This document shows, piece by piece, positions 26,824 to 58,964 of a stretch of 64,000 nucleotides of DNA (position 1 is the stretch's first letter; the number at the start of each line of letters is the position of its first letter). The notes beneath the pieces are model-generated. The model saw only the letters and a program-made list of their open reading frames with translations. It was not told where the DNA came from and did not search any database. The translations under genes were made by a program, and so were the position numbers. This DNA is from Escherichia coli phage vB_EcoS_Ace: the sequence record MT833283.1; one strand, written 5' to 3'.

Positions 26824-26888
26824 TTCGAAAATCCTACATACAAGAAAACCCCAGACTACCTATTCAATAGCTGGGGGTTTATTATTAA

Positions 26889-27188
26889 TTAGATAATTTC
26901 GACAATATCCTGAGTTACAAAACTGTCGAATTCATCAGAGATACCACCTGTAAAGGTGATGCCCATAATCATTGCATCCATCTTTTTAATCTCCGAGATT
27001 TTCATACCTGCTTTACTATTCTTATAGTATTTGCGAGGATTCCCACACATCCAACAAGAACAGATGCAAGGAGTGGTAGTGATAATGCCTAACCGCTTAG
27101 GACTTTCTTCATGTGGGAAGACTGTCCAATACTTTTTGCGATTGTTTTTCACACGTTGCCGGTGATGGCGTCTTAATGCTCGATCCAC
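26889..27188 (-). CDS. Cys-rich protein (99 aa)
   Basis: CICSCWMCGNP motif. Confidence 0.45.
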   Translation of the reverse strand: MDRALRRHHRQRVKNNRKKYWTVFPHEESPKRLGIITTTPCICSCWMCGNPRKYYKNSKAGMKISEIKKMDAMIMGITFTGGISDEFDSFVTQDIVEII

Positions 27189-27269: not shown

Positions 27270-27638
27270 TTATATCGCCTGAGTAAATGTACGACTAATA
27301 ACGTCGTTCTGTTGTTCACGCGTCAATGCGTTAAATCGAACAGCATAGCCAGAGACACGGATGGTCAACTGAGGATATTTTTCAGGATGTTTCTGTGCAT
27401 CCAAAAGCTGATCACGGCTTAACACATTGACATTTAGGTGCTGACCACCCTCGACTTGAGGAACCACTTCCACATCTACAATGCGAAAGGCCTCAGGGTC
27501 AAAGTGAGGTGTGATACCTTCTAGATCTTCGACTAGAACTTTCTGTTTAAGTTCACCATCTTTAGAATATAGTTGAATGATCTGATTGTTATGAACAATG
27601 TTAATTACGCCAGACTTAAGACTTTGATATGCTTTCAT
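27270..27638 (-). CDS. grcA: autonomous glycyl-radical cofactor (GrcA/YfiD-like)
   Basis: C-terminal block [11 protein letters not shown]...[20 protein letters not shown] nearly identical to E. coli YfiD as recalled, including glycyl-radical motif RVSGY. Confidence 0.7.
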
Positions 27639-28000
27639 TAGATCTCCCTGATGTTAGAATTTGGCTCAGCTTTTTGTTAACCCAGAAGCAAGATAAAAAC
27701 TGGAAGGCAGGCTTGCTTATTATCTAATCACTAGCTACTGTTGGGGTGCTAGCATTCCGGTGAGATTGATGGTCTCGATTAGATAAATAAGCACTGGAAC
27801 TTTGATTTTAACGTTGCGATCTTCCAGGTCTGTTGCAACTACGTGATTGCTCACGCTAAGACAATGGCTATCTAAAGTCCTAGCTTCTACATTTATACTC
27901 CTGGATAGCATGGAGTTGCAGTCTACTTCCTGCTGTCACGCCCGGCCATTTATAGAATGTGGACTCTCTTCTCAGCAGGATCTGGTACAATGACCTGATC

Positions 28001-28073
28001 CTCTGTTTAGTAGTTAGTAGTGGATTTGAACCACTGTAGTCACTCCATATGAAGGAGGTGCATAACCACTCTG
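28001..28073 (-). tRNA. tRNA-Met or Ile-lysidine (anticodon CAU)
   Basis: cloverleaf by hand; acceptor AGTTAGT/ACTAACT; T-loop TTCAAAT; anticodon loop TTCATAT; CCA not encoded. Confidence 0.6.
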
Positions 28074-28079
28074 CCAACT

Positions 28080-28155
28080 AACTATAATTTGGTACTCCGA
28101 CTTGGGATCGAACCAAGATTTGACGATTATCGGTCGCCTGTTCTAACCTGTTGAA
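28080..28155 (-). tRNA. tRNA-Ile (GAU)
   Basis: cloverleaf by hand; anticodon loop CCGATAA; T-loop TTCGATC; CCA encoded. Confidence 0.65.
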
Positions 28156-28166
28156 CTATCAGAGCA

Positions 28167-28460
28167 TTACATCATTTCATCTAAGTAAGAAGTATACTGG
28201 TATTTAGCTTCACCAGTCTTATCTACTTCTACCTCAGTTCGTGGTACTTTACGAACTAGACCGTGAATCATCTTATAGTTAATAGACTTAGATGGTTCGT
28301 GATCTTTTGGAAAGACTTGTTTAACCGTTACTACTTTGAAGCCTTCACGAGGTGTTAATACAACAACTTGATCACCTTCTTTAATTTTCCAGGACTCAGG
28401 AAATTCATAAGTGTAGCGTTGACCACCCGTTTGGAATACGACAGAAAGATAACGTTTCAT
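28167..28460 (-). CDS. hypothetical protein (97 aa)
   Basis: ORF in track; promoter cassette upstream. Confidence 0.5.
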   Translation of the reverse strand: MKRYLSVVFQTGGQRYTYEFPESWKIKEGDQVVVLTPREGFKVVTVKQVFPKDHEPSKSINYKMIHGLVRKVPRTEVEVDKTGEAKYQYTSYLDEMM

Positions 28461-28490
28461 TTGGTTTCCCTCTCATTAATTTATATAAAT

Positions 28491-28519
28491 ATTATAACAA
28501 GAAATAAGAGAGAAGGCAA
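28491..28519 (-). promoter_or_regulatory. sigma70 promoter (TATAAT / TTGCCT)
   Basis: minus strand; 17-bp spacer. Confidence 0.55.
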
Positions 28520-28534
28520 ATGAATTTTTAAATT

Positions 28535-28609
28535 TGGTGCTCCCACCAGGAATCGAACCCGGTTCAGATGCTTACAAGGCAACTGCATCGCCAGCAATGC
28601 TTTAGGAGC
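28535..28609 (-). tRNA. tRNA-Thr (UGU)
   Basis: cloverleaf by hand; anticodon loop CTTGTAA; one mismatch in anticodon stem. Confidence 0.55.
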
Positions 28610-28776
28610 AATAAACCCATTATTTCAACGGGATTTCTTTTTCATATACAGGAGACTTATATGATATTACTGTCATAGCCAACTGCTGTAGAAATTCGAA
28701 TGAGAGTTTTAAACGCTCTTCTCCTAACCCAACCTCAACGCACTTCATTCGTTTATCTACTTTTAGCTTTAGATTA

Positions 28777-28998
28777 TCAGCCATCTTTGGATTCTCTTTG
28801 CTCAGCTATTGCTAGCCAGTCTGGTAAAAGAAACTTAGTACGAAATTCTTCATATGTTTCTTCTGGATGAAAGCTATAGCCTTGCTTTTCATCATTTAAT
28901 AAAACCGAACCATCTTCTTGCTCATAAGCTCTATATGTTTCACCAATAATTAAAACTCGTCTATTGGGGTTTTTATTACGAAACTCAAAAACGTCCAT
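28777..28998 (-). CDS. hypothetical protein (73 aa)
   Basis: ORF in track, between tRNA genes. Confidence 0.4.
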   Translation of the reverse strand: MDVFEFRNKNPNRRVLIIGETYRAYEQEDGSVLLNDEKQGYSFHPEETYEEFRTKFLLPDWLAIAEQRESKDG

Positions 28999-29014
28999 AA
29001 CGTTTCCTTATATT

Positions 29015-29089
29015 TGGTGCGGGATACGAGAGTCGAACTCGTGTCTACTGGTTGGAAGCCAGTTATTCTAGCCACTGAACTAATCACGC
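29015..29089 (-). tRNA. tRNA-Gly (UCC)
   Basis: cloverleaf by hand; anticodon arm ACTGG-CTTCCAA-CCAGT. Confidence 0.6.
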
Positions 29090-29095
29090 ATAAAT

Positions 29096-29171
29096 TGGCT
29101 GGAGAAGGAGGAATCGAACCTACCATTAACGGAGTCAAAGGCCGTTGTGCTAACCGTTACACTACTCTCCA
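29096..29171 (-). tRNA. tRNA-Gln (UUG)
   Basis: cloverleaf by hand; U1-A72, G73; anticodon loop CTTTGAC. Confidence 0.55.
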
Positions 29172-29177
29172 ATTGTT

Positions 29178-29253
29178 TGGCTGGGATGCCACGGATCGAA
29201 CGTGGAACCTTCGGAGTCAGAGGCCGACGATCTGCCAATTGATCTACATCCCA
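29178..29253 (-). tRNA. tRNA-Gln (CUG)
   Basis: cloverleaf by hand; U1-A72, G73; anticodon loop CTCTGAC. Confidence 0.55.
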
Positions 29254-29260
29254 ATAATTT

Positions 29261-29461
29261 TTATTCTACAGGAACCGTGGCAATTGGATCTGGTTCTTCT
29301 AGACGTTTACCATTATGGTCAACACGAATAATACCACAACCTTCACAGATTACAACAGCACCATAGCCTTCTTTAACTTCGGCTTCTGTAATCAGACCAG
29401 AAAGATCACCAGTATCTTTGCCCCACATATCGATAGAGCATTCTTTGCAGAAATCAGCCAT
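29261..29461 (-). CDS. Cys-rich small protein (66 aa)
   Basis: CKEC...CEGC pairs. Confidence 0.4.
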   Translation of the reverse strand: MADFCKECSIDMWGKDTGDLSGLITEAEVKEGYGAVVICEGCGIIRVDHNGKRLEEPDPIATVPVE

Positions 29462-29485
29462 ATTTTAGTTCCTGTATAAGTTAAT

Positions 29486-29560
29486 TGGTGCATCCTCAGG
29501 GAATCGAACCCCGATCGTAAAGTTCGTAGCTTTACATTCTTTCCGTTGAAATAAGGACGC
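29486..29560 (-). tRNA. tRNA-Arg (ACG)
   Basis: cloverleaf by hand; anticodon arm GTAAAG-CTACGAA-CTTTAC. Confidence 0.6.
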
Positions 29561-29565
29561 ATATT

Positions 29566-29642
29566 TGGGGTGGCTAGTGGAATTCGAATCCACATAGGCC
29601 TGATTCACAATCAGGATCATTAACCAATTATGATATAGCCAC
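29566..29642 (-). tRNA. tRNA-His (GUG)
   Basis: cloverleaf by hand; anticodon arm CCTGA-TTGTGAA-TCAGG; discriminator C. Confidence 0.6.
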
Positions 29643-30007
29643 AATTGAAAACTCGCAGGGTTAGCGAAACCATCCTCAAATAGCATTTTCTAGAATACTA
29701 ATCAAGTTATCTCCTATTGCACGCAGCTCAAGACGAGTACGAATTTTCAATTGTGGCGGCTCTCCGAAACTCTTCTACTCTAGCCTTAGCAGCTTACTCC
29801 CGAACGCATGTCGGGAAAGTCTTACTAAGAGCATCAAATAGCACCGTTACTCTTTGAGCCATTGAATATCAAGAAGCAGAAGGACTTGAACCTTCACGAG
29901 ATAGACCATTTATCTCAGCCTCGTTTTCGGGTATCTTATGAGGAGTGGATGTTCCCCTTACGCCCTTTAGGAAGCCCCGTCTACCGATTCCGGCATACTT
30001 CAAGATT

Positions 30008-30097
30008 TGGCAGAAGATAATGGAGTCGAACCATCACCATATCACTACAGCGGGCCGGTTTTCAAGACCGGTTACGTACCACTACGTCCTATCTTCT
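30008..30097 (-). tRNA. tRNA-Ser (UGA), class II
   Basis: long variable arm; anticodon arm CCGGT-CTTGAAA-ACCGG; acceptor AGAAGAT/ATCTTCT. Confidence 0.6.
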
Positions 30098-30452
30098 ATT
30101 GTTCGTATATTACAAAGTTTACAGATTCAGAGTAATAACCATTACTAGAACCATGCCATTTAACGGTTACACAGCCTTTAGCTGTGGCAAACTTATACCA
30201 TGTATGGGTTACTGAATCCCAATCTTCTGTAGCGTGTGTGATTACTTCCTCTGCTTCTATGATTGGATAACCTAAAAGGTCATGTAAATCACCAATAATA
30301 TCATCTATATGAACATCTTCACAGCAGTCCTGCTCATGATAAAACTTATAGTTCTTACCATCAGTACAAATGAAGATAAGAGTATCCTGGTCTTGGCATA
30401 CACTAGTAAAAATTTTGCCAAGCATTTCATTATAGATTGTCACTTCTGACAT
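30096..30452 (-). CDS. hypothetical protein (118 aa)
   Basis: ORF in track. Confidence 0.45.
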   Translation of the reverse strand: MSEVTIYNEMLGKIFTSVCQDQDTLIFICTDGKNYKFYHEQDCCEDVHIDDIIGDLHDLLGYPIIEAEEVITHATEDWDSVTHTWYKFATAKGCVTVKWHGSSNGYYSESVNFVIYEQ

Positions 30453-30474
30453 ATTAGTTTCCTAGTAAGTTGTT

Positions 30475-30566
30475 TGGCGGAAGAAGAGAGATTCGAACTC
30501 TCAAGCCTGCTTTCACAAGTCAGCCACTTTCCAAGCGGTTTTCGTCACCTATCGATTTGCTCTTCC
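30475..30566 (-). tRNA. class II tRNA, probably tRNA-Ser (GGA)
   Basis: acceptor and T-arm clear; anticodon arm assignment (loop TTGGAAA) tentative; atypical D-arm. Confidence 0.4.
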
Positions 30567-30745
30567 GTAGATCTCAGGATTAAATCATAAACTTCATTAG
30601 CGGATACTGGAAGTATGAGATTATACATCTTTTGGTCATACCTCTGACCATACTCTATAAACACATACTCTTTAGTTAATGTATTAACAGCTAACCAGAT
30701 ATCAGTTATAGGAGTTATAGGAGTTTTCATCATGAGTTGATCCAA
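30545..30745 (-). CDS. hypothetical protein (66 aa)
   Basis: ORF in track. Confidence 0.4.
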   Translation of the reverse strand: MDQLMMKTPITPITDIWLAVNTLTKEYVFIEYGQRYDQKMYNLILPVSANEVYDLILRSTEEQIDR

Positions 30746-30749
30746 TGTT

Positions 30750-30830
30750 TGGTAGGGATGGAGGGACTCGAACCCACACCCGAAGACTAGAACCTAAATC
30801 TAGCGCGTCTGCCAATTTCGCCACATCCCC
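30750..30830 (-). tRNA. tRNA-Leu (UAG) with short UUCG-type variable hairpin
   Basis: anticodon arm CTAGA-TTTAGGT-TCTAG; A73; 81 nt. Confidence 0.5.
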
Positions 30831-30837
30831 ATTTGTT

Positions 30838-30913
30838 TGGTGGAGTCACTCAGAATTGAACTGAGTTCCACTGCTTGCAAGGCAGTAAGTTTAACCAAAT
30901 AACCTATGACCCC
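30838..30913 (-). tRNA. tRNA-Ala (UGC)
   Basis: G3-U70 wobble; anticodon loop CTTGCAA. Confidence 0.6.
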
Positions 30914-30918
30914 GAATT

Positions 30919-30997
30919 TGGTGGAGAATAAGAGATTCGAACTCTTCTGATATCCTCGGTGCAAGCGAGGTGTCCACTCCAAGCAGACCCATTCCCC
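30919..30997 (-). tRNA. second tRNA-Ala (UGC)-like
   Basis: G3-U70; anticodon arm CCTCG-CTTGCAC-CGAGG; 7-nt variable loop. Confidence 0.45.
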
Positions 30998-31006
30998 AAA
31001 ATTTAT

Positions 31007-31270
31007 TTATTCTCTATACATATCGAGAACAGTTGCTACAATCTGAGCTTCTAGCCTAGCAATATCTTTATTCACTATATCAGATTCTACTACTAAGTGA
31101 TTATATATTGCTTCAGTTTTAGCAAGATCTACATCAGATAGTTTATTAAGACTATTATAATACTTAGCATTATTGCAACGTTTCTTCGTATCGGAAACTC
31201 GTTTATGGAGTGTTCTTTGTTGATAACGTTGCGACATTAGTTTCTTAGCCATATCTTTAAGATCAAACAT
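31007..31270 (-). CDS. hypothetical protein (87 aa)
   Basis: ORF in track; fed by promoter 31513-31541 through a ~235-nt leader. Confidence 0.45.
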   Translation of the reverse strand: MFDLKDMAKKLMSQRYQQRTLHKRVSDTKKRCNNAKYYNSLNKLSDVDLAKTEAIYNHLVVESDIVNKDIARLEAQIVATVLDMYRE

Positions 31271-31512
31271 AGATATTCCTTCTAGTTTACTAAGGCTATT
31301 AGCTCGGTGTGCGTATTACCCTCAGACATTAGCCAGTAGAGTATAACCGCTCTTCACAAACCCGATACACTATTCAGTTGCCACTGAATCTAGTGGACTA
31401 ATCTAGAACTTCTCCCAAGTCGTAGGGATCGTGCTTTTGGCAGCCAGCCCTAGGTCGAGCTAATACCTTAGTGAACTTTGATGAGGATTTCTCCTCATCA
31501 ATTTATATAAAT

Positions 31513-31541
31513 ATTATAACAAGAAATTAAGCATCAAGCAA
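31513..31541 (-). promoter_or_regulatory. sigma70 promoter (TATAAT / TTGCTT)
   Basis: minus strand; 17-bp spacer; overlaps 3' end of ORF 31534..31893. Confidence 0.55.
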
Positions 31542-31893
31542 GTACATTTTTAGCAATTTCTTGTAGTTCCTTAACGTCGCTAACGAAAAGGTAATCAGAG
31601 CTTCCAGAGTGCATACTCTGCATAACCACACCATCCTCTGGTGCATCTTCCTTCAAAGTAAGTCCTAACCAGAACTCGGCAAAACTAGGTGTTACCTCAC
31701 CTTGACTTGCCTTGAACACATCACCTTCTGTGATCTCTTGACCAGTAGAGAGTCCCATGTATGGTACGTTCAGATCAATATCTTTGTAGAATTCAGCTAG
31801 ATCTTGTTCGAAGTCCCAACCTTTAGAGATAGCGAACTCCATTGTTACATGACCGAAATAGCCTTGAACCTTGCTTGATAATTGCATTTGCAA
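31534..31893 (-). CDS. hypothetical protein (119 aa)
   Basis: ORF in track. Confidence 0.5.
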   Translation of the reverse strand: MQMQLSSKVQGYFGHVTMEFAISKGWDFEQDLAEFYKDIDLNVPYMGLSTGQEITEGDVFKASQGEVTPSFAEFWLGLTLKEDAPEDGVVMQSMHSGSSDYLFVSDVKELQEIAKNVLA

Positions 31894-31911
31894 TTCCTTA
31901 TTTTGAGTTAA

Positions 31912-31985
31912 TTGGTACTCGGTGATAGAATCGAACTATCGCAACCGCCGTGTAAAGACGGGGTTCTACCATTAAACTAACCGAG
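31912..31985 (-). tRNA. tRNA-Val (UAC)
   Basis: cloverleaf by hand; anticodon loop TTTACAC. Confidence 0.6.
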
Positions 31986-31989
31986 CAAT

Positions 31990-32067
31990 TTGGTGGATTG
32001 CCTGGGATTCGAACCCAGAACTGACGGATTAAAGGTCCGCTACTCTTATCCAGTTGAGCTAGCAATC
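31990..32067 (-). tRNA. tRNA-Lys (UUU)
   Basis: anticodon loop CCTTTAA (C at position 33). Confidence 0.55.
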
Positions 32068-32700
32068 CAATTTTTCTACTAATAATTTAAAAGCATCTAG
32101 TACAGGTACTTCAAACCACTCTCCAGATACTCTATAATCTTTAAGAAGATTATGTAATTCTTTCTCTGTACGTCTTTTATCCGACGAAAATCTGAAATGG
32201 TATAGCTTGTAGTCTCTATTAGGTGAATAAGTTTGATAACTTGCTAACCTCTCATTCACATCTATAGTCATACCTATTTTATACATGCCTGGCCATGCTG
32301 GATTACCAATTACATATATAAAACCTTCCGTTATAGGTATTTTATGCTCCCTTTTATACTTTAAGAGATTTAAGGCTGCCATTCGATAACAGAATCTAAA
32401 CTCTGAAGTTTTTAACTTACCTTCTTTACCCGAAATTTCGTTATATTTGCTCATATAAGCTCTTATGAGCTTATCATCTATAATGAAGTTATCAGGAAGG
32501 TTTAAGGCAGCTAAAACTTTATTAATTAGCATAGACTTCCTTAATAGAGTATCCTTAATAGAGTAGACTTTCAAGTAAGGATGATTGATTCCTAATTCCG
32601 CCATCACTTCGTTTTTATCTTTACCGTAATGGGCTAGTGGATACTTCTTACGATCTTTGCTAGATCGTAGATCACTTACCTTTAAACGAAATAATTTCAT
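32059..32700 (-). CDS. T5orf172-domain protein (GIY-YIG-like), putative homing endonuclease
   Basis: GFIYVIGN...YKIGMT motif; paralog of ORF 35847..36377; embedded in tRNA cluster. Confidence 0.6.
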   Translation of the reverse strand: MKLFRLKVSDLRSSKDRKKYPLAHYGKDKNEVMAELGINHPYLKVYSIKDTLLRKSMLINKVLAALNLPDNFIIDDKLIRAYMSKYNEISGKEGKLKTSEFRFCYRMAALNLLKYKREHKIPITEGFIYVIGNPAWPGMYKIGMTIDVNERLASYQTYSPNRDYKLYHFRFSSDKRRTEKELHNLLKDYRVSGEWFEVPVLDAFKLLVEKLDC

Positions 32701-32721
32701 TTCGAAATCCTTCTATTAAAT

Positions 32722-32799
32722 TGGAAGCGGGTGTAGGAATCGAACCTACCTCTTTCTAGCTTATGAGACTAGCGATCTCTACCAAAGATCTAACCCGCA
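32722..32799 (-). tRNA. tRNA-Met (CAU), possibly initiator-like
   Basis: anticodon loop CTCATAA; U1-U72 mismatch at top of acceptor stem. Confidence 0.55.
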
Positions 32800-32805
32800 A
32801 TTGTT

Positions 32806-32882
32806 TGGTCTCCAATGAAGGACTCGAACCTTCAACCCCACCGCCCCAAACGGTGTACTCTAGCCAATTGAGCTAATCGGAG
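32806..32882 (-). tRNA. tRNA-Pro (UGG)
   Basis: anticodon arm CACCG-TTTGGGG-CGGTG. Confidence 0.6.
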
Positions 32883-32891
32883 AATATTATT

Positions 32892-33089
32892 TTATTGTGG
32901 TGGAATATTAATATTCCGTCCATCTATGCAGTAAATGGTACTAGGAATTGTAGAGTGTATACTGAAGTTTTGTATTTTACTCTCTCCACCACAGAAATTT
33001 TTTGCAAATTCATACTCCTTGTTAATGGTTGAATCAAATTTAAAGCAACCAGTGAGTAAGAATACAGATAGTAACATAACTTTTTTCAT
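32892..33089 (-). CDS. small lipoprotein (65 aa)
   Basis: signal peptide with lipobox LTGC. Confidence 0.45.
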   Translation of the reverse strand: MKKVMLLSVFLLTGCFKFDSTINKEYEFAKNFCGGESKIQNFSIHSTIPSTIYCIDGRNINIPPQ

Positions 33090-33121
33090 TTTGCTTTCCT
33101 TCTCAACACTTTATAAGATAT

Positions 33122-33150
33122 ATTATACAGAGAATTAAGCAAAATAGCAA
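33122..33150 (-). promoter_or_regulatory. sigma70 promoter (TATAAT / TTGCTA)
   Basis: minus strand; 17-bp spacer. Confidence 0.6.
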
Positions 33151-33408
33151 ATGAATTTTTAATAAATTTACTTATTGCGTAGGCCACCTGGAGGGTTCAA
33201 GCCCCACGTCTGACAAAGAAGTTTGCGAGACTTCTCTTAAACGCCAGAATAGACCCGCCGATCTATCGGAACCTACTCAATAAGTAAACTTTCGTTTACC
33301 TACACCTACCTGGTCGGGAGGATTTTCAGCTACTAGAACCGGCCGGAAACTCATCGCCTTGTTTACCTTGTAGTCCCACTATAAGTGACGCGACCTACAA
33401 AGATTTTG

Positions 33409-33479
33409 TGCGGTCGGAGGGAATCGAACCCTCAACTTCTGGTTGGCAACCAAAAATTATACCTTTTAACTACGAACGC
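33409..33479 (-). tRNA. tRNA-Gly (GCC)
   Basis: anticodon arm TTTGG-TTGCCAA-CCAGA; one acceptor mismatch; CCA not encoded. Confidence 0.5.
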
Positions 33480-33692
33480 ATAATGAGTCAATCTAGGTAG
33501 GACTTGAACCTACTATCACTTGTGCGGATTTACGAGAACCATTCTTTCACTCGAATCGAACGAGCTTCTACCCTCGGCAAGCTGGTGTCCCCTCTCCACC
33601 ACGCTAGAATGATAATTAATGCCTGCTCCTTTGAATCAAGAAGTCCACCCCGGACTTTGGGTCTTTGCAGTACATCACGCTGCTCTGATGTT

Positions 33693-33769
33693 TGGTACAC
33701 CCACTAGGACTTGAACCTAGAACCTACCGCTTAAGAGGCGGTAGCTCTAACCAATTGAGCTATGGATGT
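33693..33769 (-). tRNA. tRNA-Lys (CUU)
   Basis: anticodon arm ACCGC-CTCTTAA-GCGGT. Confidence 0.6.
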
Positions 33770-33775
33770 ATAATT

Positions 33776-33850
33776 TGGCGGTACTAAGGGTAATCGAAAC
33801 CCTACCTCTCCCGTGACAGGGGAGTATCCTAACCGTTAGACTATAGTACC
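33776..33850 (-). tRNA. tRNA-Asp (GUC)
   Basis: anticodon arm CTCCC-CTGTCAC-GGGAG. Confidence 0.65.
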
Positions 33851-34371
33851 TTTAACTTTTTAAGTTCTTTAGGATTGCCTCCTAAAGAAGTGTATCTTTT
33901 ACGCAACCCATTATCTGAATAACTTAACTTTCTCCCTGCACCTGACCAGCCTAGCTCTCTTACTGTAACCTCGATTATTTCTTTAGTTATAGAGATATCT
34001 TTTGGTTTATGTGAAGAGCACTCCTGACATTTTTCAGCTTTTAAAGAAATAGCTTTACCACAATCCTTACAACAATTATCATGGTTTAGTTTACTAAATC
34101 CTTTATCTTTTAAAGTCTTTTCTAGATGCTGCTCTTTTGTGAGCACTTGTAAGTTATTAAGACCCCAATAAGTAATGTCTGTGTTAATATGGTCAACTTC
34201 TAGTTCAGAGTCTAGACTTGGTAATTTCTTAAATGCACATGCTAAAATCCTATGTACACCAGTATTTCTCTGTTGACCATTTTTATGGAGACGTATAGAT
34301 AAGTATCCGTAATTACTGGTTATTGGGGTTAGTATTTTGTTTGATTTGATACTAAATACTAACCCATCCAA
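33841..34371 (-). CDS. HNH homing endonuclease (176 aa)
   Basis: HNH motif (VHRILACAF...EVDHIN...N...H); within tRNA cluster, as for T5 F-Tfl endonucleases as recalled. Confidence 0.65.
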   Translation of the reverse strand: MDGLVFSIKSNKILTPITSNYGYLSIRLHKNGQQRNTGVHRILACAFKKLPSLDSELEVDHINTDITYWGLNNLQVLTKEQHLEKTLKDKGFSKLNHDNCCKDCGKAISLKAEKCQECSSHKPKDISITKEIIEVTVRELGWSGAGRKLSYSDNGLRKRYTSLGGNPKELKKLKVL

Positions 34372-34425
34372 ACTTACTAAGTACTTCTCAAACCCTGGAA
34401 TGGGTAAGGATATTCAGTGCATAAT

Positions 34426-34611
34426 TTACTCAGTTTTGAGTTTTTCGATAGCTTCCTCAACCTCTTTTAGAGCTTCACGACGCTCTACTTGACCTTGAAG
34501 TTCTTCAAGAAGTTCAGCTTTCAGAGCCTTAATAATATTACCACGAACCTTAATATTATTAATCAGATTATCACGATCAGCTTCTAGTCGAGCAATTGCA
34601 CGAGTTGTCAT
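34426..34611 (-). CDS. coiled-coil protein (61 aa)
   Basis: ORF in track. Confidence 0.35.
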   Translation of the reverse strand: MTTRAIARLEADRDNLINNIKVRGNIIKALKAELLEELQGQVERREALKEVEEAIEKLKTE

Positions 34612-34714
34612 ATCTATTTCCTCAGTTGTTAATGAAAAATGGTATCTGTGACTGAATTCGATATCAGCAATGATAGCTGGTTGGCTACCGGTTTACTTAA
34701 CTCTACACAGAATA

Positions 34715-34797
34715 TGGCGGGCCGTGTAGGATTCGAACCTACGTTGTCTTTCGACATGGATTAACAGTCCACCGCCAAACCGCTTGGCTAACGACCC
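34715..34797 (-). tRNA. class II-like tRNA with anticodon GUU (Asn)
   Basis: 3-bp D-stem and 13-nt variable hairpin (Tyr-like scaffold) but anticodon loop CTGTTAA and discriminator G. Confidence 0.45.
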
Positions 34798-34804
34798 TAA
34801 AATT

Positions 34805-34880
34805 TGGACGACCGCATGAGATTCGAACTCACATAAGGAGGTTTTGCAGGCCTCCGCCTAAGCCATTCAGCCAACGGTCG
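34805..34880 (-). tRNA. tRNA-Cys (GCA)
   Basis: anticodon loop CTGCAAA. Confidence 0.55.
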
Positions 34881-35058
34881 ATTTATCTTGCTTTTCGAGA
34901 TTAGTAAACTCTAGATCTATAGAATGTCCTATAGATCTAGCATAATAGCCATCTCCAGCATCATAGCCTGACTTACCACACTCACACATCTTAAACTCTC
35001 TATAACGAGTGAAAATATGTTCAGAACCACAACACTTAAATTTAACTAACATTTTCAT
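34867..35058 (-). CDS. Cys-containing small protein (63 aa)
   Basis: ORF in track; CC...CEC motif. Confidence 0.4.
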   Translation of the reverse strand: MKMLVKFKCCGSEHIFTRYREFKMCECGKSGYDAGDGYYARSIGHSIDLEFTNLEKQDKSTVG

Positions 35059-35297
35059 TTAACACGCTCCGGTAAATCTTCGAGTTTATATTGAGTAGCC
35101 ACATTAGCAGCATCTAGTAACAAACCCATATGTTTAAGAATCCTAGTGATAGCCTCGCCTTCTGCTTCTTCTACAAAAGTGCGTAGTTGAATGAAGTCAA
35201 TACCACCATCCATACCAGAGAAAATGTTAAGTAAGCGAAGCATTACCAGCTTACGTTCTTTCAGTTCTTGTTCTATCATGTTGCTTCTCCAGTTCAA
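35055..35297 (-). CDS. hypothetical protein (80 aa)
   Basis: ORF in track; promoter cassette upstream. Confidence 0.5.
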   Translation of the reverse strand: MNWRSNMIEQELKERKLVMLRLLNIFSGMDGGIDFIQLRTFVEEAEGEAITRILKHMGLLLDAANVATQYKLEDLPERVK

Positions 35298-35308
35298 TTT
35301 ATGTAATA

Positions 35309-35337
35309 ATTATACAGAACTTTAAGGATTTAAGCAA
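35309..35337 (-). promoter_or_regulatory. sigma70 promoter (TATAAT / TTGCTT)
   Basis: minus strand; 17-bp spacer. Confidence 0.6.
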
Positions 35338-35668
35338 CTACATTTTTCAGAAATTTGATGCCTTTCTTACACTTCTTATACCACCACGTCTTAGAGTTTT
35401 GTCGATTATGAACGCTTGAGATCTTCGCCTCATTAAAGTGCTTCAAAAGCATATAATCAGCCCCTAATTGCTCAAGTGGAATGTGATCTCCACTAGAATC
35501 ATAAACATAAGGCCGTTGATTAGCTCTGTAGTGATATACCTTATTAATCCGGCGTTTAAGCAAAGGACTAGTACAGTATATAAAGAAGTTTTTAGGATGC
35601 ATCAGCATCTCCTTCAAAATTGGTGCACCCCGTTGGTAACGATCCAACCTCTCAAGCTCTTCAGGCAA
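35330..35668 (-). CDS. hypothetical protein (112 aa)
   Basis: ORF in track. Confidence 0.45.
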   Translation of the reverse strand: MPEELERLDRYQRGAPILKEMLMHPKNFFIYCTSPLLKRRINKVYHYRANQRPYVYDSSGDHIPLEQLGADYMLLKHFNEAKISSVHNRQNSKTWWYKKCKKGIKFLKNVVA

Positions 35669-35786
35669 GCGCTAATCCATCTCAGCTAAAGGTGCAAATA
35701 TTGGCAAACCTACTAGGACTCGAACCTAGACCGTACGGTTTTGGAGACCGACATGCTGTCCAGTAACACTCTAGGAATGCAGAAAT

Positions 35787-35861
35787 TGGTATTCTCACAC
35801 GGATTCGAACCGAGATTTCTGGAGTGAAGTTCCAGTGACCTAACCATTAGTCGATGAGAAC
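35787..35861 (-). tRNA. tRNA-Glu (UUC)
   Basis: anticodon arm CTGGA-ACTTCAC-TCCAG; one T-stem mismatch. Confidence 0.5.
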
Positions 35862-36377
35862 ATTATATTCTTTTGCTTTCTCTAATTTTAGAAAAGACTT
35901 TAATTCTTCTAAGTTAATTATATTAAACCATTCACCTTCTAGTGCAAAAGGTTTAAGAAACTTATGTATTTTTGATTCTACCGCACGTCTATCGGAGTAG
36001 AATTGATAGTGCTCCAGAGTAAAATCTCTGTAAGGACTATATGTTTGATATGACCTCAGTCTTTCATGGACATTTACTGTCATACCTATTTTGTAACAAT
36101 TAGGCCATGCTTTATTGCCAATAACATATACCATACCTTCATACACAGGTAATTTATGCGCTTGTTTATACTGAATAAGATTTAAAGCAGAAATTCTATC
36201 ATACTGCATTATTCTTTTAGTATTCTTCTTTTCAGTACAAGTACCTTTTATCTCATTATAGATTTCTCGATATTTAGCAAGTAAATCTACATCAATAACA
36301 AAAGGTATAGTAGGAGAGATAATATCTCTTTCCTCCATAGCGCTAATTACTATTTTTGGTATATCTGGTATTGCCAT
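35847..36377 (-). CDS. T5orf172-domain protein (GIY-YIG-like), putative homing endonuclease
   Basis: EGMVYVIGN...YKIGMT...GEWF motifs; paralog of 32059..32700. Confidence 0.6.
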   Translation of the reverse strand: MAIPDIPKIVISAMEERDIISPTIPFVIDVDLLAKYREIYNEIKGTCTEKKNTKRIMQYDRISALNLIQYKQAHKLPVYEGMVYVIGNKAWPNCYKIGMTVNVHERLRSYQTYSPYRDFTLEHYQFYSDRRAVESKIHKFLKPFALEGEWFNIINLEELKSFLKLEKAKEYNVLID

Positions 36378-36398
36378 TTTTAGACCTTAGTTAAATTT

Positions 36399-36486
36399 GG
36401 TGGGCGTTAATGGAGTCGAACCACTCGAGTCGCAATGACCAGGGATTTACAATCCCCTCCGCTACCACTTACGGAATAAACGCCCA
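36399..36486 (-). tRNA. tRNA-Tyr (GUA), class II
   Basis: long variable arm; anticodon arm GGGGA-TTGTAAA-TCCCT; A73. Confidence 0.6.
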
Positions 36487-36616
36487 TATTTAGAAGTATT
36501 CAAAAAATTCTCATTTAAACACTTTTAAATATGTTTCCAAATTAGATAACTATTATATCAAGTTTTATGGCACTGAGCAAGTCAGATTTTAAAGAACTTG
36601 CTCAGTGCTGTATTAG

Positions 36617-36892
36617 TTAGTCGAACTTAGGAGTGACAGTTAAGGAGAACGGAAGTTCAAAAACTTCTTCACCCTCATCACTAACAGTGATTACCCGACC
36701 CTCTAACTTATTCATGCTAATCTCAACATCAGCCGTAGCATCTGGAGCCATGCCAGCTTCAACACATTTAGCTTTAATTTCCGGCAGAAGTTCTACATCA
36801 TAGAAATAAAGCCATTCAATCTCACCTTCCCAGCCTTCCCAGGATTTACAGATTGCACTTTCAATACCAGTTGTTATAACACGATTTTGCAT
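36617..36892 (-). CDS. hypothetical protein (91 aa)
   Basis: ORF in track; promoter cassette upstream. Confidence 0.5.
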   Translation of the reverse strand: MQNRVITTGIESAICKSWEGWEGEIEWLYFYDVELLPEIKAKCVEAGMAPDATADVEISMNKLEGRVITVSDEGEEVFELPFSLTVTPKFD

Positions 36893-36922
36893 TCGTTAAC
36901 TCCTTCATCAATTTATATAACT

Positions 36923-36952
36923 ATTATAACAGAAATCTTAAGTAAAAAGCAA
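36923..36952 (-). promoter_or_regulatory. sigma70 promoter (TATAAT / TTGCTT, 18-bp spacer)
   Basis: minus strand. Confidence 0.55.
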
Positions 36953-36982
36953 GTACATTTTTAAAATTTCTGCTTGGAGGAG

Positions 36983-37255
36983 TTAAACTCCTGATTCTTC
37001 AGCCAGATCAAGCCCAACCAACGTGATTGCCATAATAGCCGCGCCATGTTCCTTCTCTCCTAGCTCTTTAGCTTGAGTGAGAATATTGAGGAATTGCTTT
37101 TGAAAATCTGTAACTTCTTCTGTCATGCCTGCTTCAGCAATAATTCCTTTCAGCATAAAGCGTTGTGCCGTAATTTCAGGATTAGCCATTTGTTTTCTCC
37201 AGTTATTTAGAATGTAAGCCAAACTTAGGATCATAGCGATCATAAGTCGTACCAT
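36983..37255 (-). CDS. hypothetical protein (90 aa)
   Basis: ORF in track. Confidence 0.45.
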   Translation of the reverse strand: MVRLMIAMILSLAYILNNWRKQMANPEITAQRFMLKGIIAEAGMTEEVTDFQKQFLNILTQAKELGEKEHGAAIMAITLVGLDLAEESGV

Positions 37256-37341
37256 TAGTTGAAGCCTTGATGCTATGAAAACGACAGTACATAAATTTAC
37301 GTAGTGCTTTATTAATAGCTTTCATTTTATTTCCTTTTATT

Positions 37342-37418
37342 TGGTAGGGGTGGTGGGATTCGAACCCACAAAACCTGAATTTTAAGTCCAGTACCTATGC
37401 CAATTCGATTACACCCCC
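37342..37418 (-). tRNA. tRNA-Leu (UAA)-like with class I architecture
   Basis: anticodon arm CTGGA-CTTAAAA-TTCAG; A73; only 4-nt variable loop; D-arm atypical. Confidence 0.4.
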
Positions 37419-37426
37419 ATGTAATC

Positions 37427-37768
37427 TTAGCGAATCTCTAAACCCTGGAAATATCGAGGGAATGGAGAGCCAACTTCAAAATTAATACCCCAATTAAGTT
37501 CAACGAGTTCAGATTTATTAAGATCCAGACCATTACCTTCAAAGATATAGCCGTAAACCGCAGGGAACATAGCTGCTAGATCTTCCATATCGGAATGAGC
37601 ATTGTGTTCTTCACGAAACTGCTCAAACTCTTCAAAGAACTTTTCTAGGAAGAACTCTGGTACAATGAACGTTACTACATCTGTGGTATCATCAATACGA
37701 TAGATGGTAGCTTGGAATAGACCTACACCTAAAAGGTTGACTGCCGGAGTTGTAAAAATATCCATTTT
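37427..37768 (-). CDS. acidic hypothetical protein
   Basis: track ORF 37427..37876 trimmed to internal Met that overlaps the upstream stop. Confidence 0.4.
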   Translation of the reverse strand, partial: KMDIFTTPAVNLLGVGLFQATIYRIDDTTDVVTFIVPEFFLEKFFEEFEQFREEHNAHSDMEDLAAMFPAVYGYIFEGNGLDLNKSELVELNWGINFEVGSPFPRYFQGLEIR

Positions 37769-37952
37769 AGCCTCGCTCAATATCAAAAGAAATTGCATAA
37801 TTAGGGTTAATGCCAGAACCTTTACAGGTAGGACATTCCCATTCGTTATAGAAAATGTCCCCAGGTTCAGCATCATTTTGAGTGCCAGAACCCCAACATT
37901 CAGTACACATACATTCTTCTAGCTCTTGAGCAATTTCTCGAAAGCGTGACAT
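37767..37952 (-). CDS. zinc-ribbon protein (61 aa)
   Basis: CxxC...CxxC (CTEC, CPTC). Confidence 0.45.
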   Translation of the reverse strand: MSRFREIAQELEECMCTECWGSGTQNDAEPGDIFYNEWECPTCKGSGINPNYAISFDIERG

Positions 37953-37969
37953 ATAGTCTCCTAATTAAT

Positions 37970-38047
37970 TGGTGGCTCCCGGAGGATTCGAACCTACCTA
38001 CCTTTCGCTTATGAGGCGACGGCTCATACCAAATGAGCTTGAGAACC
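37970..38047 (-). tRNA. tRNA-Met or Ile-lysidine (CAU)
   Basis: anticodon loop CTCATAA; D-arm GCTCA...TGAGC. Confidence 0.55.
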
Positions 38048-38052
38048 AAATC

Positions 38053-38146
38053 TGGAGGAAGATGCCAGATTCGAACTGGCACACCGTGTTTCCACAGCTA
38101 CTGGCTGTTTAGCAAACAGCTCCCTTACCATTAGGGTTAATCTTCC
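38053..38146 (-). tRNA. tRNA-Ser (GCU), class II
   Basis: anticodon arm GCTGT-TTGCTAA-ACAGC; long variable arm; acceptor GGAAGAT/ATCTTCC. Confidence 0.65.
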
Positions 38147-38160
38147 GAATTTATGAATAT

Positions 38161-38189
38161 ATTATACAGAAAATTTCGACATTAAGCAA
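38161..38189 (-). promoter_or_regulatory. sigma70 promoter (TATAAT / TTGCTT) reading into tRNA cluster
   Basis: minus strand; 17-bp spacer; next downstream genes are tRNA-Ser(GCU) and tRNA-Met. Confidence 0.6.
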
Positions 38190-38197
38190 GTGAAATT

Positions 38198-38494
38198 TTA
38201 CTGAACCTTGCACTGATATACTTGTTTGATACGTGTCACTGACTTCTTAGTTGGATTGATAGAAGAACCCTGCCACCAACGTGATTCTGAGCTGAGAACA
38301 GTACCAGGAACAGCTTGTTCTTTTGGCAGAACAATATCAAAACACTGTTCACCCATATTATCTTTAATGTGCGACCAAATGTCTAGAGTAAATCGTTCTA
38401 GCTTATTACAAACTTGAACTTGACAAAGTTCCTGTTGTGGAGCAGCAAATACAGAAGTAGATACTAGAGTCAATGCAAGTACAATGCGTTTCAT
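38198..38494 (-). CDS. secreted protein
   Basis: track ORF trimmed to Met after SD; N-terminal signal peptide. Confidence 0.5.
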   Translation of the reverse strand: MKRIVLALTLVSTSVFAAPQQELCQVQVCNKLERFTLDIWSHIKDNMGEQCFDIVLPKEQAVPGTVLSSESRWWQGSSINPTKKSVTRIKQVYQCKVQ

Positions 38495-38524
38495 ATTTGA
38501 TTCCTCTCTCAAATTTATAAATAT

Positions 38525-38553
38525 ATTATACAGAAATTTTCTATATTAAGCAA
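38525..38553 (-). promoter_or_regulatory. sigma70 promoter (TATAAT / TTGCTT)
   Basis: minus strand; 17-bp spacer. Confidence 0.6.
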
Positions 38554-38571
38554 GTGAAAATTTCTGTATAA

Positions 38572-38591
38572 TAGCCCTCGCTTAGAGGGCT
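38572..38591 (-). terminator. GC hairpin, possible terminator after pnuC
   Basis: stem AGCCCTC/GAGGGCT immediately 3' of pnuC stop; U-tract weak. Confidence 0.35.
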
Positions 38592-38600
38592 ATAGCTACT

Positions 38601-39293
38601 TTATTTGTTAACGCGTACAAAGTATCCTTTATATGCCCCAAGAATAGAGTTACCTAAAAATACTAGCCACATTGCTAGGATTGCATAAGATGCACCTGTA
38701 GATTGAGCAGTTACAAGCCAAATGTATACAGTACCAATGTTAATAGCAATCCAGATCAGCCACTGCTCGGCATACTGCTTAACCATAAGCCACATAGCGA
38801 TCACACTACCTACCGCAGTAAATGCATCCAACATTGGGAATGGATCAGCCGTAGTAGTTAAGAAACTACCATACCCTAACGTGGCTACTGCTAGAATCCC
38901 TAGAGTCAGCAGAGCTTGGACTTTAGTCAGAATCTTAGTTGGAACATCTGGCAGATTACTTGGCTTATTTTTATGCCATAAGTACATTCCATAAAACTGC
39001 ATAGGAACGTAGTATAGCAGGTTTAGTGCAGCGTTACCATAAAGATCTTCGTTTAAAGCTGTAATACCATAGGTAAGAACACCAACTAAGCCCCAAATAT
39101 AGTTAGAAACACGTCCTTTAGCAACCAAAATAACACAAACTACGTTGGTTATCGCAGTAGCCCAATCTAGAGGTGTACCATTATAGTTAGCTAAACTAAT
39201 GAAGGCAACCGCTATGAACAGCCACAGATATTCCAGAGGTTTCCAGTTTTTAAAGTCATTTACGAGATAGTTAGTCATATTAAAACTCTCCAA
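38601..39293 (-). CDS. pnuC: nicotinamide riboside transporter (PnuC family)
   Basis: 230-aa multi-pass membrane protein with PnuC-like conserved blocks; immediately downstream of NadR-like gene. Confidence 0.6.
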   Translation of the reverse strand: MESFNMTNYLVNDFKNWKPLEYLWLFIAVAFISLANYNGTPLDWATAITNVVCVILVAKGRVSNYIWGLVGVLTYGITALNEDLYGNAALNLLYYVPMQFYGMYLWHKNKPSNLPDVPTKILTKVQALLTLGILAVATLGYGSFLTTTADPFPMLDAFTAVGSVIAMWLMVKQYAEQWLIWIAINIGTVYIWLVTAQSTGASYAILAMWLVFLGNSILGAYKGYFVRVNK

Positions 39294-39903: not shown

Positions 39904-40116
39904 TGTAGCTGAGATTGGAACACGAGTCCGATCAGAATCTACAATATAATGACCAAACTTCGGCAGATATTTCTTATATTCTGCATCATAGTCTAGTTCG
40001 CTAGAGAAAATGGTGATCTCAGGTAAATGTCCGTAATTTTCATTAAGGATTCTAGCATATTCCGGCCAACCATTCGGATATTCAGGAATATCATCTTCAA
40101 TAATATACTCTACCTA

Positions 40117-40335: not shown

Positions 40336-40365
40336 GTTTGATTCCTCTCTCAAATTTATAAATAT

Positions 40366-40394
40366 ATTATACAGAGAATTTAGCATTCAAGCAA
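40366..40394 (-). promoter_or_regulatory. sigma70 promoter (TATAAT / TTGCTT) for nadR-like/pnuC
   Basis: minus strand; 17-bp spacer. Confidence 0.6.
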
Positions 40395-57089: not shown

Positions 57090-58964
57090 ATGAATCGCAA
57101 TGAAGAACTAAAGTATAAAGGAATGCAGTCCTTGATTCGAAACTGCAAAGAAATTATCGAAGGTTCAGCAGATGAAGAGCTGCTGTTTAATAATGCCAAT
57201 AAGCCCTCAGAACGTTTCCCTACACAAAGGGATATGCTTGCAGGGGAATTGAGTAAATATCTGATTCTGGAAGAAATGCCAATCCAGATTCGAAATGCTC
57301 ACATGATTGGTGATATTCACTTCCATGATGCTGATTACGCTGCATTAGGTATGACTAACTGTTGCCTGGTTGCTTTGGAAGATATGTTGAAAAACGGTAT
57401 GAAGGTTGGTAATGCTGAAATCAGTACGCCAAACTCCATTACTACTGCGGCTGCTATTACAGCTCAGATTATTACTCAGGTTAGCTCCCATCAATATGGT
57501 GGTACTTCTGTAGACCGATTAGATGAAGTACTGGCTCCTTATGTTCGTAAGTCTTATGATAAGAATCATGCGTTTGCAAAACGTTGGACTAAGGATGAAG
57601 CCAAAGCATCTGTAATGGCTACGGAAATGACTGAGAAAGAAGTTTACGATGCCTGTCAGGGCCTGGAGTATGAAATCAATACGATGTTCAACTCTAATGG
57701 TCAAAGTCCGTTTATTACCTTTGGGTTTGGTCTAGGAACTTCTTGGGAAGCACGTCTTGTACAGAAAGCAATCCTAGAAGTGCGTATGGATGGTTTGGGT
57801 ATCAATAAACGTACAGCTATCTTCCCTAAACTGGTATTTGTTTTGCGTGATGGCGTAAACATGAAACCTGGTGATGTTAACTATGATATCAAGAAGTTAG
57901 CTATGAAATGTACTGCTGAACGTATGTATCCTGACTACATCAGTTATGATAAGGTTGTAGAAGTTACGGGAGACTACAAAGTCTCTATGGGCTGTCGTTC
58001 ATTCCTGGCTGCTGCGGAAGATGGTGAAACTTCTGGTCGTAACAACTTAGGCGTTGTTTCCGTAAACCTTCCTCGAATCGCTATCGAAGCGGAAGGAAAT
58101 ATTGATCTATTCTTCGATCTACTTGAGCTGCGTGTGGATACCGCGTTAAAAGCATTGGAGTGGAGGGTTGATCGCTTAAAATACATTCAAGCTAAAGCTG
58201 CGCCCATCCTCTATATGTCAGGAGCCTTTGGATTACGTCTGGGGCCAGATGAATATGTATTTGATCATTTCTACAAGCGTGCTTCCGTATCTCTAGGATA
58301 TATTGGTTGCCACGAAATGTTGCAGCTCATGTTTGGTAAAGATGTAGATACAATGTCTGAGTCTTGTATCAAGTTCGTTCAACGTGTGCTACAATATATG
58401 CGTGATCGTGCTGATCAGAAGAAGGAAGAGACTCAGTTAGGTTATAGTCTGTATGCTACACCATCTGAATCTCTGTGTGATCGCTTCTGTCGTCTAGACC
58501 GTGAGTACTTCCCAGAGCATGAGGATATTCTGGCTAAAGGATATTACACTAACTCCCATCACCTTGATGTAGAACGTAAGGTTGCTCCAAATGTGAAATT
58601 TGATTATGAGTCTAACTTTACTCCTATTGCTTCTGGTGGGTGCATTTCCTACGTGGAATTACCTGACATGAAGAAATTCCCAGATGCCCTAGAATGGGTA
58701 ATTAACTATGCTGCAAGTAAAGTTCACTACTTTGGTATTAATACTCCAGTTGATTCTTGTGGTGAGTGTGGATTCTTAGGCGAAACAATTGCTTCTGAAG
58801 ATGGATTTAAATGCCCAATTTGTGGCAACCATGATCCTGAGACTCTTGAGGTAACACGTCGTGTTTGTGGGTACCTTGGTAATCCAGGTGCACGCCCATT
58901 TAACCCAGGTAAACAGCATGAGGTTATGGGACGAATCAAGCATGCAGATGTAAGAGCTAAATAA
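57090..58964 (+). CDS. nrdD: anaerobic ribonucleoside-triphosphate reductase (NrdD)
   Basis: 624 aa; C-terminal Cys cluster and glycyl-radical motif RVCGYLG; consensus promoter and SD upstream. Confidence 0.8.
   Translation: MNRNEELKYKGMQSLIRNCKEIIEGSADEELLFNNANKPSERFPTQRDMLAGELSKYLILEEMPIQIRNAHMIGDIHFHDADYAALGMTNCCLVALEDMLKNGMKVGNAEISTPNSITTAAAITAQIITQVSSHQYGGTSVDRLDEVLAPYVRKSYDKNHAFAKRWTKDEAKASVMATEMTEKEVYDACQGLEYEINTMFNSNGQSPFITFGFGLGTSWEARLVQKAILEVRMDGLGINKRTAIFPKLVFVLRDGVNMKPGDVNYDIKKLAMKCTAERMYPDYISYDKVVEVTGDYKVSMGCRSFLAAAEDGETSGRNNLGVVSVNLPRIAIEAEGNIDLFFDLLELRVDTALKALEWRVDRLKYIQAKAAPILYMSGAFGLRLGPDEYVFDHFYKRASVSLGYIGCHEMLQLMFGKDVDTMSESCIKFVQRVLQYMRDRADQKKEETQLGYSLYATPSESLCDRFCRLDREYFPEHEDILAKGYYTNSHHLDVERKVAPNVKFDYESNFTPIASGGCISYVELPDMKKFPDALEWVINYAASKVHYFGINTPVDSCGECGFLGETIASEDGFKCPICGNHDPETLEVTRRVCGYLGNPGARPFNPGKQHEVMGRIKHADVRAK

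Follow-up and report, generated by a model that had tools for sequence, protein, structure and literature searches.

A GrcA-like glycyl radical protein of a T5-like phage as a probable spare part for host pyruvate formate-lyase

The DNA analyzed here, a 64,000-nucleotide stretch of Escherichia coli phage vB_EcoS_Ace (record MT833283.1) that we call the window, encodes a small protein resembling host GrcA (YfiD) as well as the glycyl-radical enzyme NrdD. A sequence-only reading of this DNA had proposed that the small protein is a repair module for NrdD, or that its gene is a recent acquisition from the host. Which enzyme would such a protein serve, and how long have phages carried its gene? In the account given in PMC8683613, which cites Wagner et al. 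(2001) for the phage protein, the only validated spare parts are YfiD and T4 Y06I; both are radicalized by the pyruvate formate-lyase (PFL) activase, PFL-AE, and rescue oxygen-cleaved PFL.

Family and domain organization

ORF calling placed the coding sequence at 27270..27638 on the minus strand, with an ATG start and 122 encoded residues in a stop-to-stop frame of 128 codons. The protein is standalone, lacks a catalytic barrel and falls within the size range of the family (~115-130 aa). Reading the sequence revealed an exact RVSGYAV glycyl-radical motif at residues 94-100 (27339-27359, minus strand), in which Gly97 (codon 27348-27350, minus strand) is the predicted radical site and the predicted equivalent of GrcA G102 and PFL G734. 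The motif is invariant across an 80-sequence family alignment, and the phage protein keeps every residue that is invariant in the GrcA family, among them the radical glycine with its flanking residues. Pfam Gly_radical (PF01228) matched with E=4e-18, the phage family PHROG 1209 covered the protein end to end (E=7e-47), and the best PDB match was E. coli GrcA (6owr; E=2e-29), followed by PflB (~1.6e-26). These matches bear out the proposed membership in the GrcA/YfiD family. Scores against three bacterial equivalog models fell below their cutoffs: 118.3 bits for NCBIfam TIGR04365 (GrcA; cutoff 170 bits), with only residues 54-121 matched, 90.1 bits for GrcA2 (cutoff 145) and 116 bits for GrcA3 (cutoff 158). 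Judged by sequence, the gene product is a phage-lineage representative of the GrcA/YfiD/Y06I autonomous glycyl radical cofactors, with a divergent GrcA N-terminal region (residues 1-62) and a PFL-type glycyl-radical domain (residues 63-122).

The C-terminal 60 residues had been described as nearly identical to E. coli GrcA. Alignment to the host protein upheld the RVSGYAV motif but not the near-identity: 48 of the 60 residues (80%) match E. coli K-12 GrcA, including an unbroken run of 21, whereas only 16/57 match over the N-terminal 60 residues. The same C-terminal residues are 78% identical to PflB (47/60) and 85% identical to TdcE (51/60), the closest of the three E. coli proteins. From the radical glycine to the C-terminal end, 24 of 26 residues match TdcE, compared with 19-20 for GrcA and PflB. 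E. coli GrcA, PflB and TdcE are themselves mutually identical at 47-52 of these 60 positions.

The glycyl-radical domain shares both fold and sequence identity with PflB and TdcE, but these are 760-aa enzymes with a catalytic barrel, while the phage protein is the detachable radical module alone. In size, domain order and radical motif it is like E. coli GrcA. T4 Y06I is also a small standalone phage protein of ~120 aa with a PFL-type RVSGYAV domain and belongs to the same PHROG; the two share N-terminal MKAYQ... and DPE.F motifs, although their overall identity is only ~50%. In three IMG/VR contigs (L097, L109 and L111), the glycyl-radical domain ends a stop-to-stop frame of ~766 codons, the size of full-length PFL, and PHROG 21327 likewise has 760 positions. 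Such frames may represent PFLs carried by phages, or else DNA of bacteria or prophages.

When the N-terminal 62 residues were compared with the E. coli GrcA N-terminus by BLASTP, residues 51-62 alone aligned, and similarity of residues 1-50 was undetectable in this pairwise comparison. Profile alignment with hhalign of T5-like N-termini to the N-termini of bacterial and other-phage GrcAs gave 95.5% probability (E=1.4e-8, 55 columns). This makes residues 1-62 a homologue, at profile level, of the N-terminal region of GrcA. The idea that this region is a recognizable copy of PFL ~630-700 was unsupported, as BLASTP of the N-terminal 62 residues against the PflB pre-radical region found nothing.

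An AF2 model based on the 80-sequence alignment (mean pLDDT 76.8) has a helix, a beta-hairpin and a helix in the glycyl-radical domain. A Foldseek search with the C-terminal domain of this model returned the YfiD NMR structure 6owr and PFL crystal structures (2pfl) as top PDB matches. Residues 2-36 are predicted to form a four-strand beta-meander (pLDDT 83-90). By NMR, the N-terminus of YfiD lacks order, but binding to cleaved PFL, and activation, require YfiD residues 1-60 (PMC8683613). Since the phage N-terminus is predicted to be ordered, in contrast to that of YfiD, PFL-binding behavior may differ between the two proteins.

Distribution, ancestry and selection

The 3 kb around grcA are 97.8% identical at the nucleotide level to Salmonella phage bux (Demerecviridae, Epseptimavirus), in which an identical protein is encoded and labeled "glycyl radical cofactor" in GenBank. 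T5 carries the orthologue T5.056, labeled "putative acetyltransferase-related protein". T5.056 and annotated orthologues in bux, beppo, PECP14, VSe12 and other phages are 90-100% identical to the window protein and occupy the same position after tRNA-Met and tRNA-Ile, with the difference that the gap between tRNA-Met and grcA is 370 nt in the window and 13 nt in T5. Across GenBank, names range from "glycyl radical cofactor" through "pyruvate formate-lyase", "2-ketobutyrate formate-lyase" and "acetyltransferase-related" to "ribonucleotide reductase subunit".

Homologues were detected by tblastn in 1583 phage records. Of these, ~439 are at least 80% identical and are T5-likes, and ~1100 further records hold more distant T4-like and jumbo-phage homologues; ~867 records fall below 60% identity, most of them T4-likes, where the gene is vs.6. 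In a search of 5.8 billion proteins, all full-length matches were T5-like phage proteins, with identities of 86% or more and scores of no less than 226 bits. Below these came a drop to ~126 bits, with jumbo-phage proteins next, and bacterial GrcAs matched just the C-terminal 56-60% of the query, none of them full length. For the C-terminal 60 residues, the nearest sequences outside the T5-likes were also phage proteins, at 51-52/60 compared with 48/60 for E. coli GrcA. The 12 positions that differ from E. coli GrcA are all fixed across the T5-likes.

Over the last 60 codons, the phage gene matches E. coli grcA at 128 of 180 nucleotides (71%) and pflB and tdcE at 133/180 each, and 24 of the 48 residues conserved with GrcA use a different codon. 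A blastn search of 5426 E. coli genomes matched only nucleotides 184-369, at ~75%, with pflB and tdcE as the best hits. At 40.7%, the GC content of the phage gene is phage-like (window, 39.6%; E. coli grcA, 47.9%), and its GC3 of 0.33 is within the 0.27-0.38 found for seven long genes of the window. A codon-preference log-likelihood based on phage usage did not discriminate, as E. coli grcA outscored the phage gene, so we relied on nucleotide identity, synonymous differences and GC/GC3 instead.

Selection was estimated from 29 unique T5-like nucleotide sequences, which specify 17 different proteins. Whole-gene dN/dS was 0.072 at a dS of 0.38, with values of 0.11 for codons 1-60 and 0.02 for codons 61-122. 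Both halves of T5-like grcA are under purifying selection.

Could the gene nonetheless be a recently captured host grcA, a passenger without a phage-specific role? Its resemblance to GrcA is what such a capture predicts, and T4-type phages do carry a C-terminal half identical to that of the host. However, nucleotide identity to host genes is only 71-75% and restricted to the 3′ half, full-length matches stop at the T5-likes with the jumbo-phage proteins next in score, base composition is inside the range of the phage's other genes, and the gene is present in T5 and ~440 relatives with a dN/dS of 0.07. We regard host capture as having almost no chance of being correct, and these data refute the earlier suggestion of a recent acquisition. 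T5-like grcA is an old phage lineage, with phage rather than host ancestry.

The T4-type gene differs in this respect. In phage RB10 (L005:3001-3363), the last 60 codons of vs.6 encode a segment identical to E. coli GrcA (60/60 residues) and match grcA at 177 of 180 nucleotides, compared with 128 for the T5-like gene. Because of this nucleotide identity, T4-type vs.6 looks like the product of a recent exchange with the host, by recombination or gene conversion. The N-terminal half of RB10 vs.6 is diverged. A near-identical, recently acquired gene thus fits the T4-likes and not the T5-like gene.

The phage NrdD and the client enzyme

As had been proposed, the phage encodes NrdD, a class III (anaerobic) ribonucleotide reductase. 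Its gene, at 57090..58964 on the plus strand, specifies 624 residues that include RVCGYLG and end in ...TRRVCGYLGNPG, and it matches Pfam NRDD with E=5e-172. This catalytic subunit has the RVCGY motif and a Zn-ribbon at its C-terminus. Its alignment with E. coli NrdD covers residues 113-705 of the latter at 54% identity and, starting as it does at residue 113, shows that the ATP-cone is missing. Among solved structures the phage protein is near the NrdDs 9d3x and T4 1h78, and it keeps the E. coli-type GRNNLG motif of formate-dependent enzymes. NrdD of the E. coli type uses formate as its reductant (PMC11226230), and by homology with the E. coli and T4 enzymes the phage NrdD would also be formate-dependent.

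A perfect sigma-70 promoter (TTGACA-17-TATAAT, 57033-57061) precedes nrdD, which is followed at ~300 nt by a Sir2-family protein gene (59270-60112, plus strand; Pfam SIR2 E=1e-21). An FNR-like box, TTGACTCAGATCAA (1 mismatch), lies in 56991-57061, ~30 nt upstream of the promoter. Scanning for TTGAT-N4-ATCAA with at most two mismatches found 80 boxes genome-wide where 62±8 were expected, and the number of such boxes is not above chance.

We found no activase for NrdD. With E. coli NrdG and PflA as tblastn queries, nothing better than E=2 was obtained in the window or in positions 64001-114000 of Sw2, the other 50 kb of a closely related phage genome. A six-frame scan for CxxxCxxC revealed no credible activase candidate in either region, and none is annotated in this part of Sw2. 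These searches agree with the sequence-only reading, which had seen no NrdG-like activase in the window, and extend the result to the remainder of a relative's genome; a cognate NrdG with CxxxCxxC was not found. Absence of NrdG is an already published T5 trait: many phages are nrdD-only, and T5, EPS7 and SPC35 have phoH between their nrd genes (Dwivedi et al., 2013; PMC3653736), the arrangement seen in the window (nrdB, nrdA, phoH, nrdD). T4, unlike the T5-likes, encodes its own NrdG. Since the phage lacks NrdG, dependence on host NrdG, raised before as a possibility, is reasonable to infer. Over the final 32 residues, the segment with the radical glycine, NrdD of the phage matches E. coli NrdD at 24 positions and that of T4 matches it at 18; the phage value is consistent with use of host NrdG.

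PFL and its activase are, by comparison, available in the same cell from the host. E. coli K-12 encodes pflA and pflB, the phage encodes neither, and the hosts of its relatives are Salmonella and E. coli.

A survey of grcA neighborhoods covered 85 loci of other phages, some of them with gene calls. It placed grcA within nrd operons in no fewer than four further phage lineages (L044:6185-9163; L043:2214-5513; L129:9718-12195; L046:4656-8372; also L076, L077, L079 and L095), and every copy has the PFL-type RVSGYAV, not the NrdD-type motif. The order is nrdD-grcA-DUF4326-nrdG in the jumbo phages K64-1, RaK2, Serratia BF and Yersinia fHe-Yen9, and nrdA-nrdB-x-nrdD-nrdG-grcA-nrdC-nrdH in Aeromonas Ah1 and a 65-like contig, with a 4-nt overlap between grcA and the nrdG stop. 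Aeromonas BUCT695 (Grimontviridae) has nrdD followed after 10 nt by grcA, and Vibrio D479 has nrdA-nrdB-grcA. Two further candidates were rejected. In BUCT695, grcA is followed by a 152-aa gene that is not NrdG, since its product lacks CxxxCxxC and looks macro-domain-like, and vs.6 of RB43-type phages does not adjoin nrdD, since nrdAB is 6.5-8 kb away. No nrd gene was found within 10 kb of grcA in the T5-likes or T4-likes, and the two genes are 29 kb apart in the window.

These data bear on the proposal that the phage protein is a spare part for the phage's own NrdD, in which it would replace the cleaved glycyl-radical segment so that host NrdG could reactivate the enzyme. The co-occurrence of grcA and nrdD in a phage without NrdG is in line with such a role, as is the adjacency of grcA to nrdD and/or nrdG in the jumbo Klebsiella, Serratia and Yersinia phages, Ah1, the 65-like contig and BUCT695, and the authors of PMC8683613 speculate on spare parts for other glycyl radical enzymes. 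However, a BLASTP comparison of the phage's GrcA with its NrdD detected no similarity (best E=4.9), whereas identity to the PFL-type domains of PflB and TdcE is 78-85%. The phage GrcA has the PFL-AE type RVSGYAV rather than RVCGYLG and lacks a Zn-ribbon. Even copies located between nrdD and nrdG stay PFL-type, and in sequence the phage GrcAs resemble host PFL/GrcA rather than the NrdD of their own genome: vs.6 tracks E. coli grcA at all but three of 180 nucleotides, and the C-terminal 60 residues of the BUCT695 protein differ, when the two sequences are compared by eye, at few positions from Aeromonas GrcA (P0083). T4 Y06I also acts on PFL, as reported in PMC8683613. We consider direct repair of NrdD very unlikely, and the corresponding part of the sequence-only reading does not hold.

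Instead, the evidence argues that the protein, a phage-adapted GrcA, would quite probably act as a spare part for oxygen-damaged host PFL. The likely client is host PFL (PflB, perhaps TdcE) and the likely activase host PflA, because BLASTP similarity to the phage NrdD is undetectable, the domain and its RVSGYAV motif are of the PFL type, Y06I and YfiD provide a precedent, and phage copies track host PFL/GrcA. That the T5-like protein would itself be radicalized by PFL-AE and rescue PFL we infer from YfiD and Y06I only (PMC8683613).

Within this family of roles, the main client could be TdcE, the 2-ketobutyrate formate-lyase, or the protein could serve PflB and TdcE alike. TdcE is the closest E. 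coli match, most clearly from the radical glycine onward, tdcE is among the best blastn hits, and the 12 fixed differences from GrcA leave room for TdcE, or another protein, as the preferred partner. But the distinction comes down to a few residues in a 60-aa domain over which the E. coli paralogues differ from one another to a similar extent (47-52/60 identical), and PflB is abundant, constitutive and the proven client of both YfiD and Y06I. We therefore judge a TdcE-directed or dual-purpose role to be unlikely, if less so than repair of NrdD.

The protein might also be a decoy or inhibitor that binds PFL-AE or cleaved PFL without restoring activity, thereby redirecting pyruvate or SAM/radical capacity, for example to free reducing power for NrdG. 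A divergent N-terminal half, possibly folded in the AF2 model, and the fixed lineage-specific C-terminal substitutions could be read in this way. A decoy, though, would not need an intact radical site held at a dN/dS of 0.02, and all GrcA-family invariant residues are kept, radical glycine and flanks among them. The T4 homologue restores PFL activity in the experiments summarized in PMC8683613. We give inhibition as little credence as repair of NrdD and retain the PFL spare part as the preferred reading.

How, then, could the recurrent placement of grcA beside nrd genes be explained? Metabolic coupling through formate would be the simplest reading compared with direct NrdD repair, on the basis of the synteny in other phages. 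A GrcA that secures formate for NrdD would account for the repeated retention of grcA beside nrd genes. The original intuition that GrcA and NrdD form a pair may thus have been apt in an indirect sense, as the nrd-operon synteny elsewhere suggests. For the T5-likes we propose tentatively, as a possibility short of an even chance, that GrcA and NrdD form a dispersed module for anaerobic dNTP supply, in which PFL is kept active after host shut-off and provides formate, the obligatory reductant, to a formate-type NrdD. Within the library that was searched, literature searches returned nothing connecting phage GrcA to formate supply for NrdD, and nothing on T5-like phages and formate-lyase.

Transcription unit, proposed mechanism and significance

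The grcA start codon is preceded, five bases upstream, by the Shine-Dalgarno sequence GGGAG (27644..27648, minus strand; read from sequence), and the stretch AGGAGATCTAATG at this site is identical in an alignment with T5. A scan identified a sigma-70 promoter-like sequence, TTGCCT-17-TATAAT with an extended -10 TG, at 28491..28519 (minus strand), which aligns with the annotated T5 promoter P11. This P11-like promoter is the probable start of the unit containing grcA. From the T5 alignment and annotation, the order is P11-like promoter, 97-aa ORF, tRNA-Ile, tRNA-Met, grcA, 99-aa Cys-rich ORF and terminator. The tRNA-Met and tRNA-Ile genes (28010..28165, minus strand; ARAGORN and Rfam), in the same order as in T5, lie between promoter and grcA and are probably co-transcribed with it. 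Rfam detected only tRNAs near grcA. The unit is closed by a rho-independent terminator (CCCCAG...CTGGGG followed by TTTT; 26845..26877, minus strand) conserved with the annotated T5 terminator.

Several features of this region were noted. The window has 29 tRNA genes at 28010-41856, all on the minus strand and interspersed with small ORFs, and grcA is the first protein gene past the last tRNA pair of the cluster. In the 370 nt between tRNA-Met and grcA (27639-28009), ARAGORN and Rfam detected nothing and no gene is annotated; the interval holds only a 58-aa ORF (27735-27911, minus strand). Directly downstream of grcA in the same unit is the basic, Cys-rich 99-aa ORF (26889..27188, minus strand), the orthologue of T5.055, which contains TTPCICSCWMCGNPRKYY and has no Pfam match. 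We rejected this ORF (CICSCWMC) as an activase since it is too short and lacks a Pfam match. Upstream of grcA there is just one weak FNR-like site, with two mismatches, which does not support FNR control of the gene. The phage gene thus differs from E. coli grcA in lying in a tRNA-containing transcription unit and in lacking a convincing upstream FNR site.

A model that accommodates these observations begins in a micro-oxic infected enterobacterial cell, where oxygen would cleave host PflB, and possibly TdcE, at the radical glycine. Phages of the T5 type break down the host's DNA and halt expression of its genes. As a result of this DNA loss and shut-off, the infected cell would be unable to make new PFL or host GrcA, and the phage would bring its own copy, expressed from the early tRNA-containing transcription unit. 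The 14-kDa phage protein would dock on cleaved PFL, with its N-terminal half aiding binding, and its C-terminal domain would substitute for the lost glycyl-radical loop. Host PflA (PFL-AE) would then place a radical on Gly97 of RVSGYAV, restoring the conversion of pyruvate and CoA to acetyl-CoA and formate. A likely benefit is sustained production of ATP and acetyl-CoA. A second likely benefit would be sustained formate, the reductant for the phage's formate-type NrdD, itself activated by host NrdG.

Parts of this picture were in place before. Family function was demonstrated in T4 in 2001, according to PMC8683613, identical proteins are already labeled in GenBank, and the recurrent nrd synteny elsewhere is the one moderately novel lead. 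Overall, the observation behind the sequence-only reading is confirmed, and its interpretation was right for the family, for NrdD and for the lack of NrdG, but not for a recent acquisition or an NrdD repair module; the sequence of the gene points to PFL, not NrdD. The T5-like branch is an old phage lineage and not a fresh host capture, and a single name, GrcA-like, could replace the divergent GenBank labels. Repeated placement of grcA in the nrd operons of other phages offers a testable hypothesis, that PFL is protected to feed formate to the anaerobic reductase. As an auxiliary metabolic gene, grcA would allow a virulent phage to keep host PFL fermentation going as oxygen fluctuates, for example in the gut.
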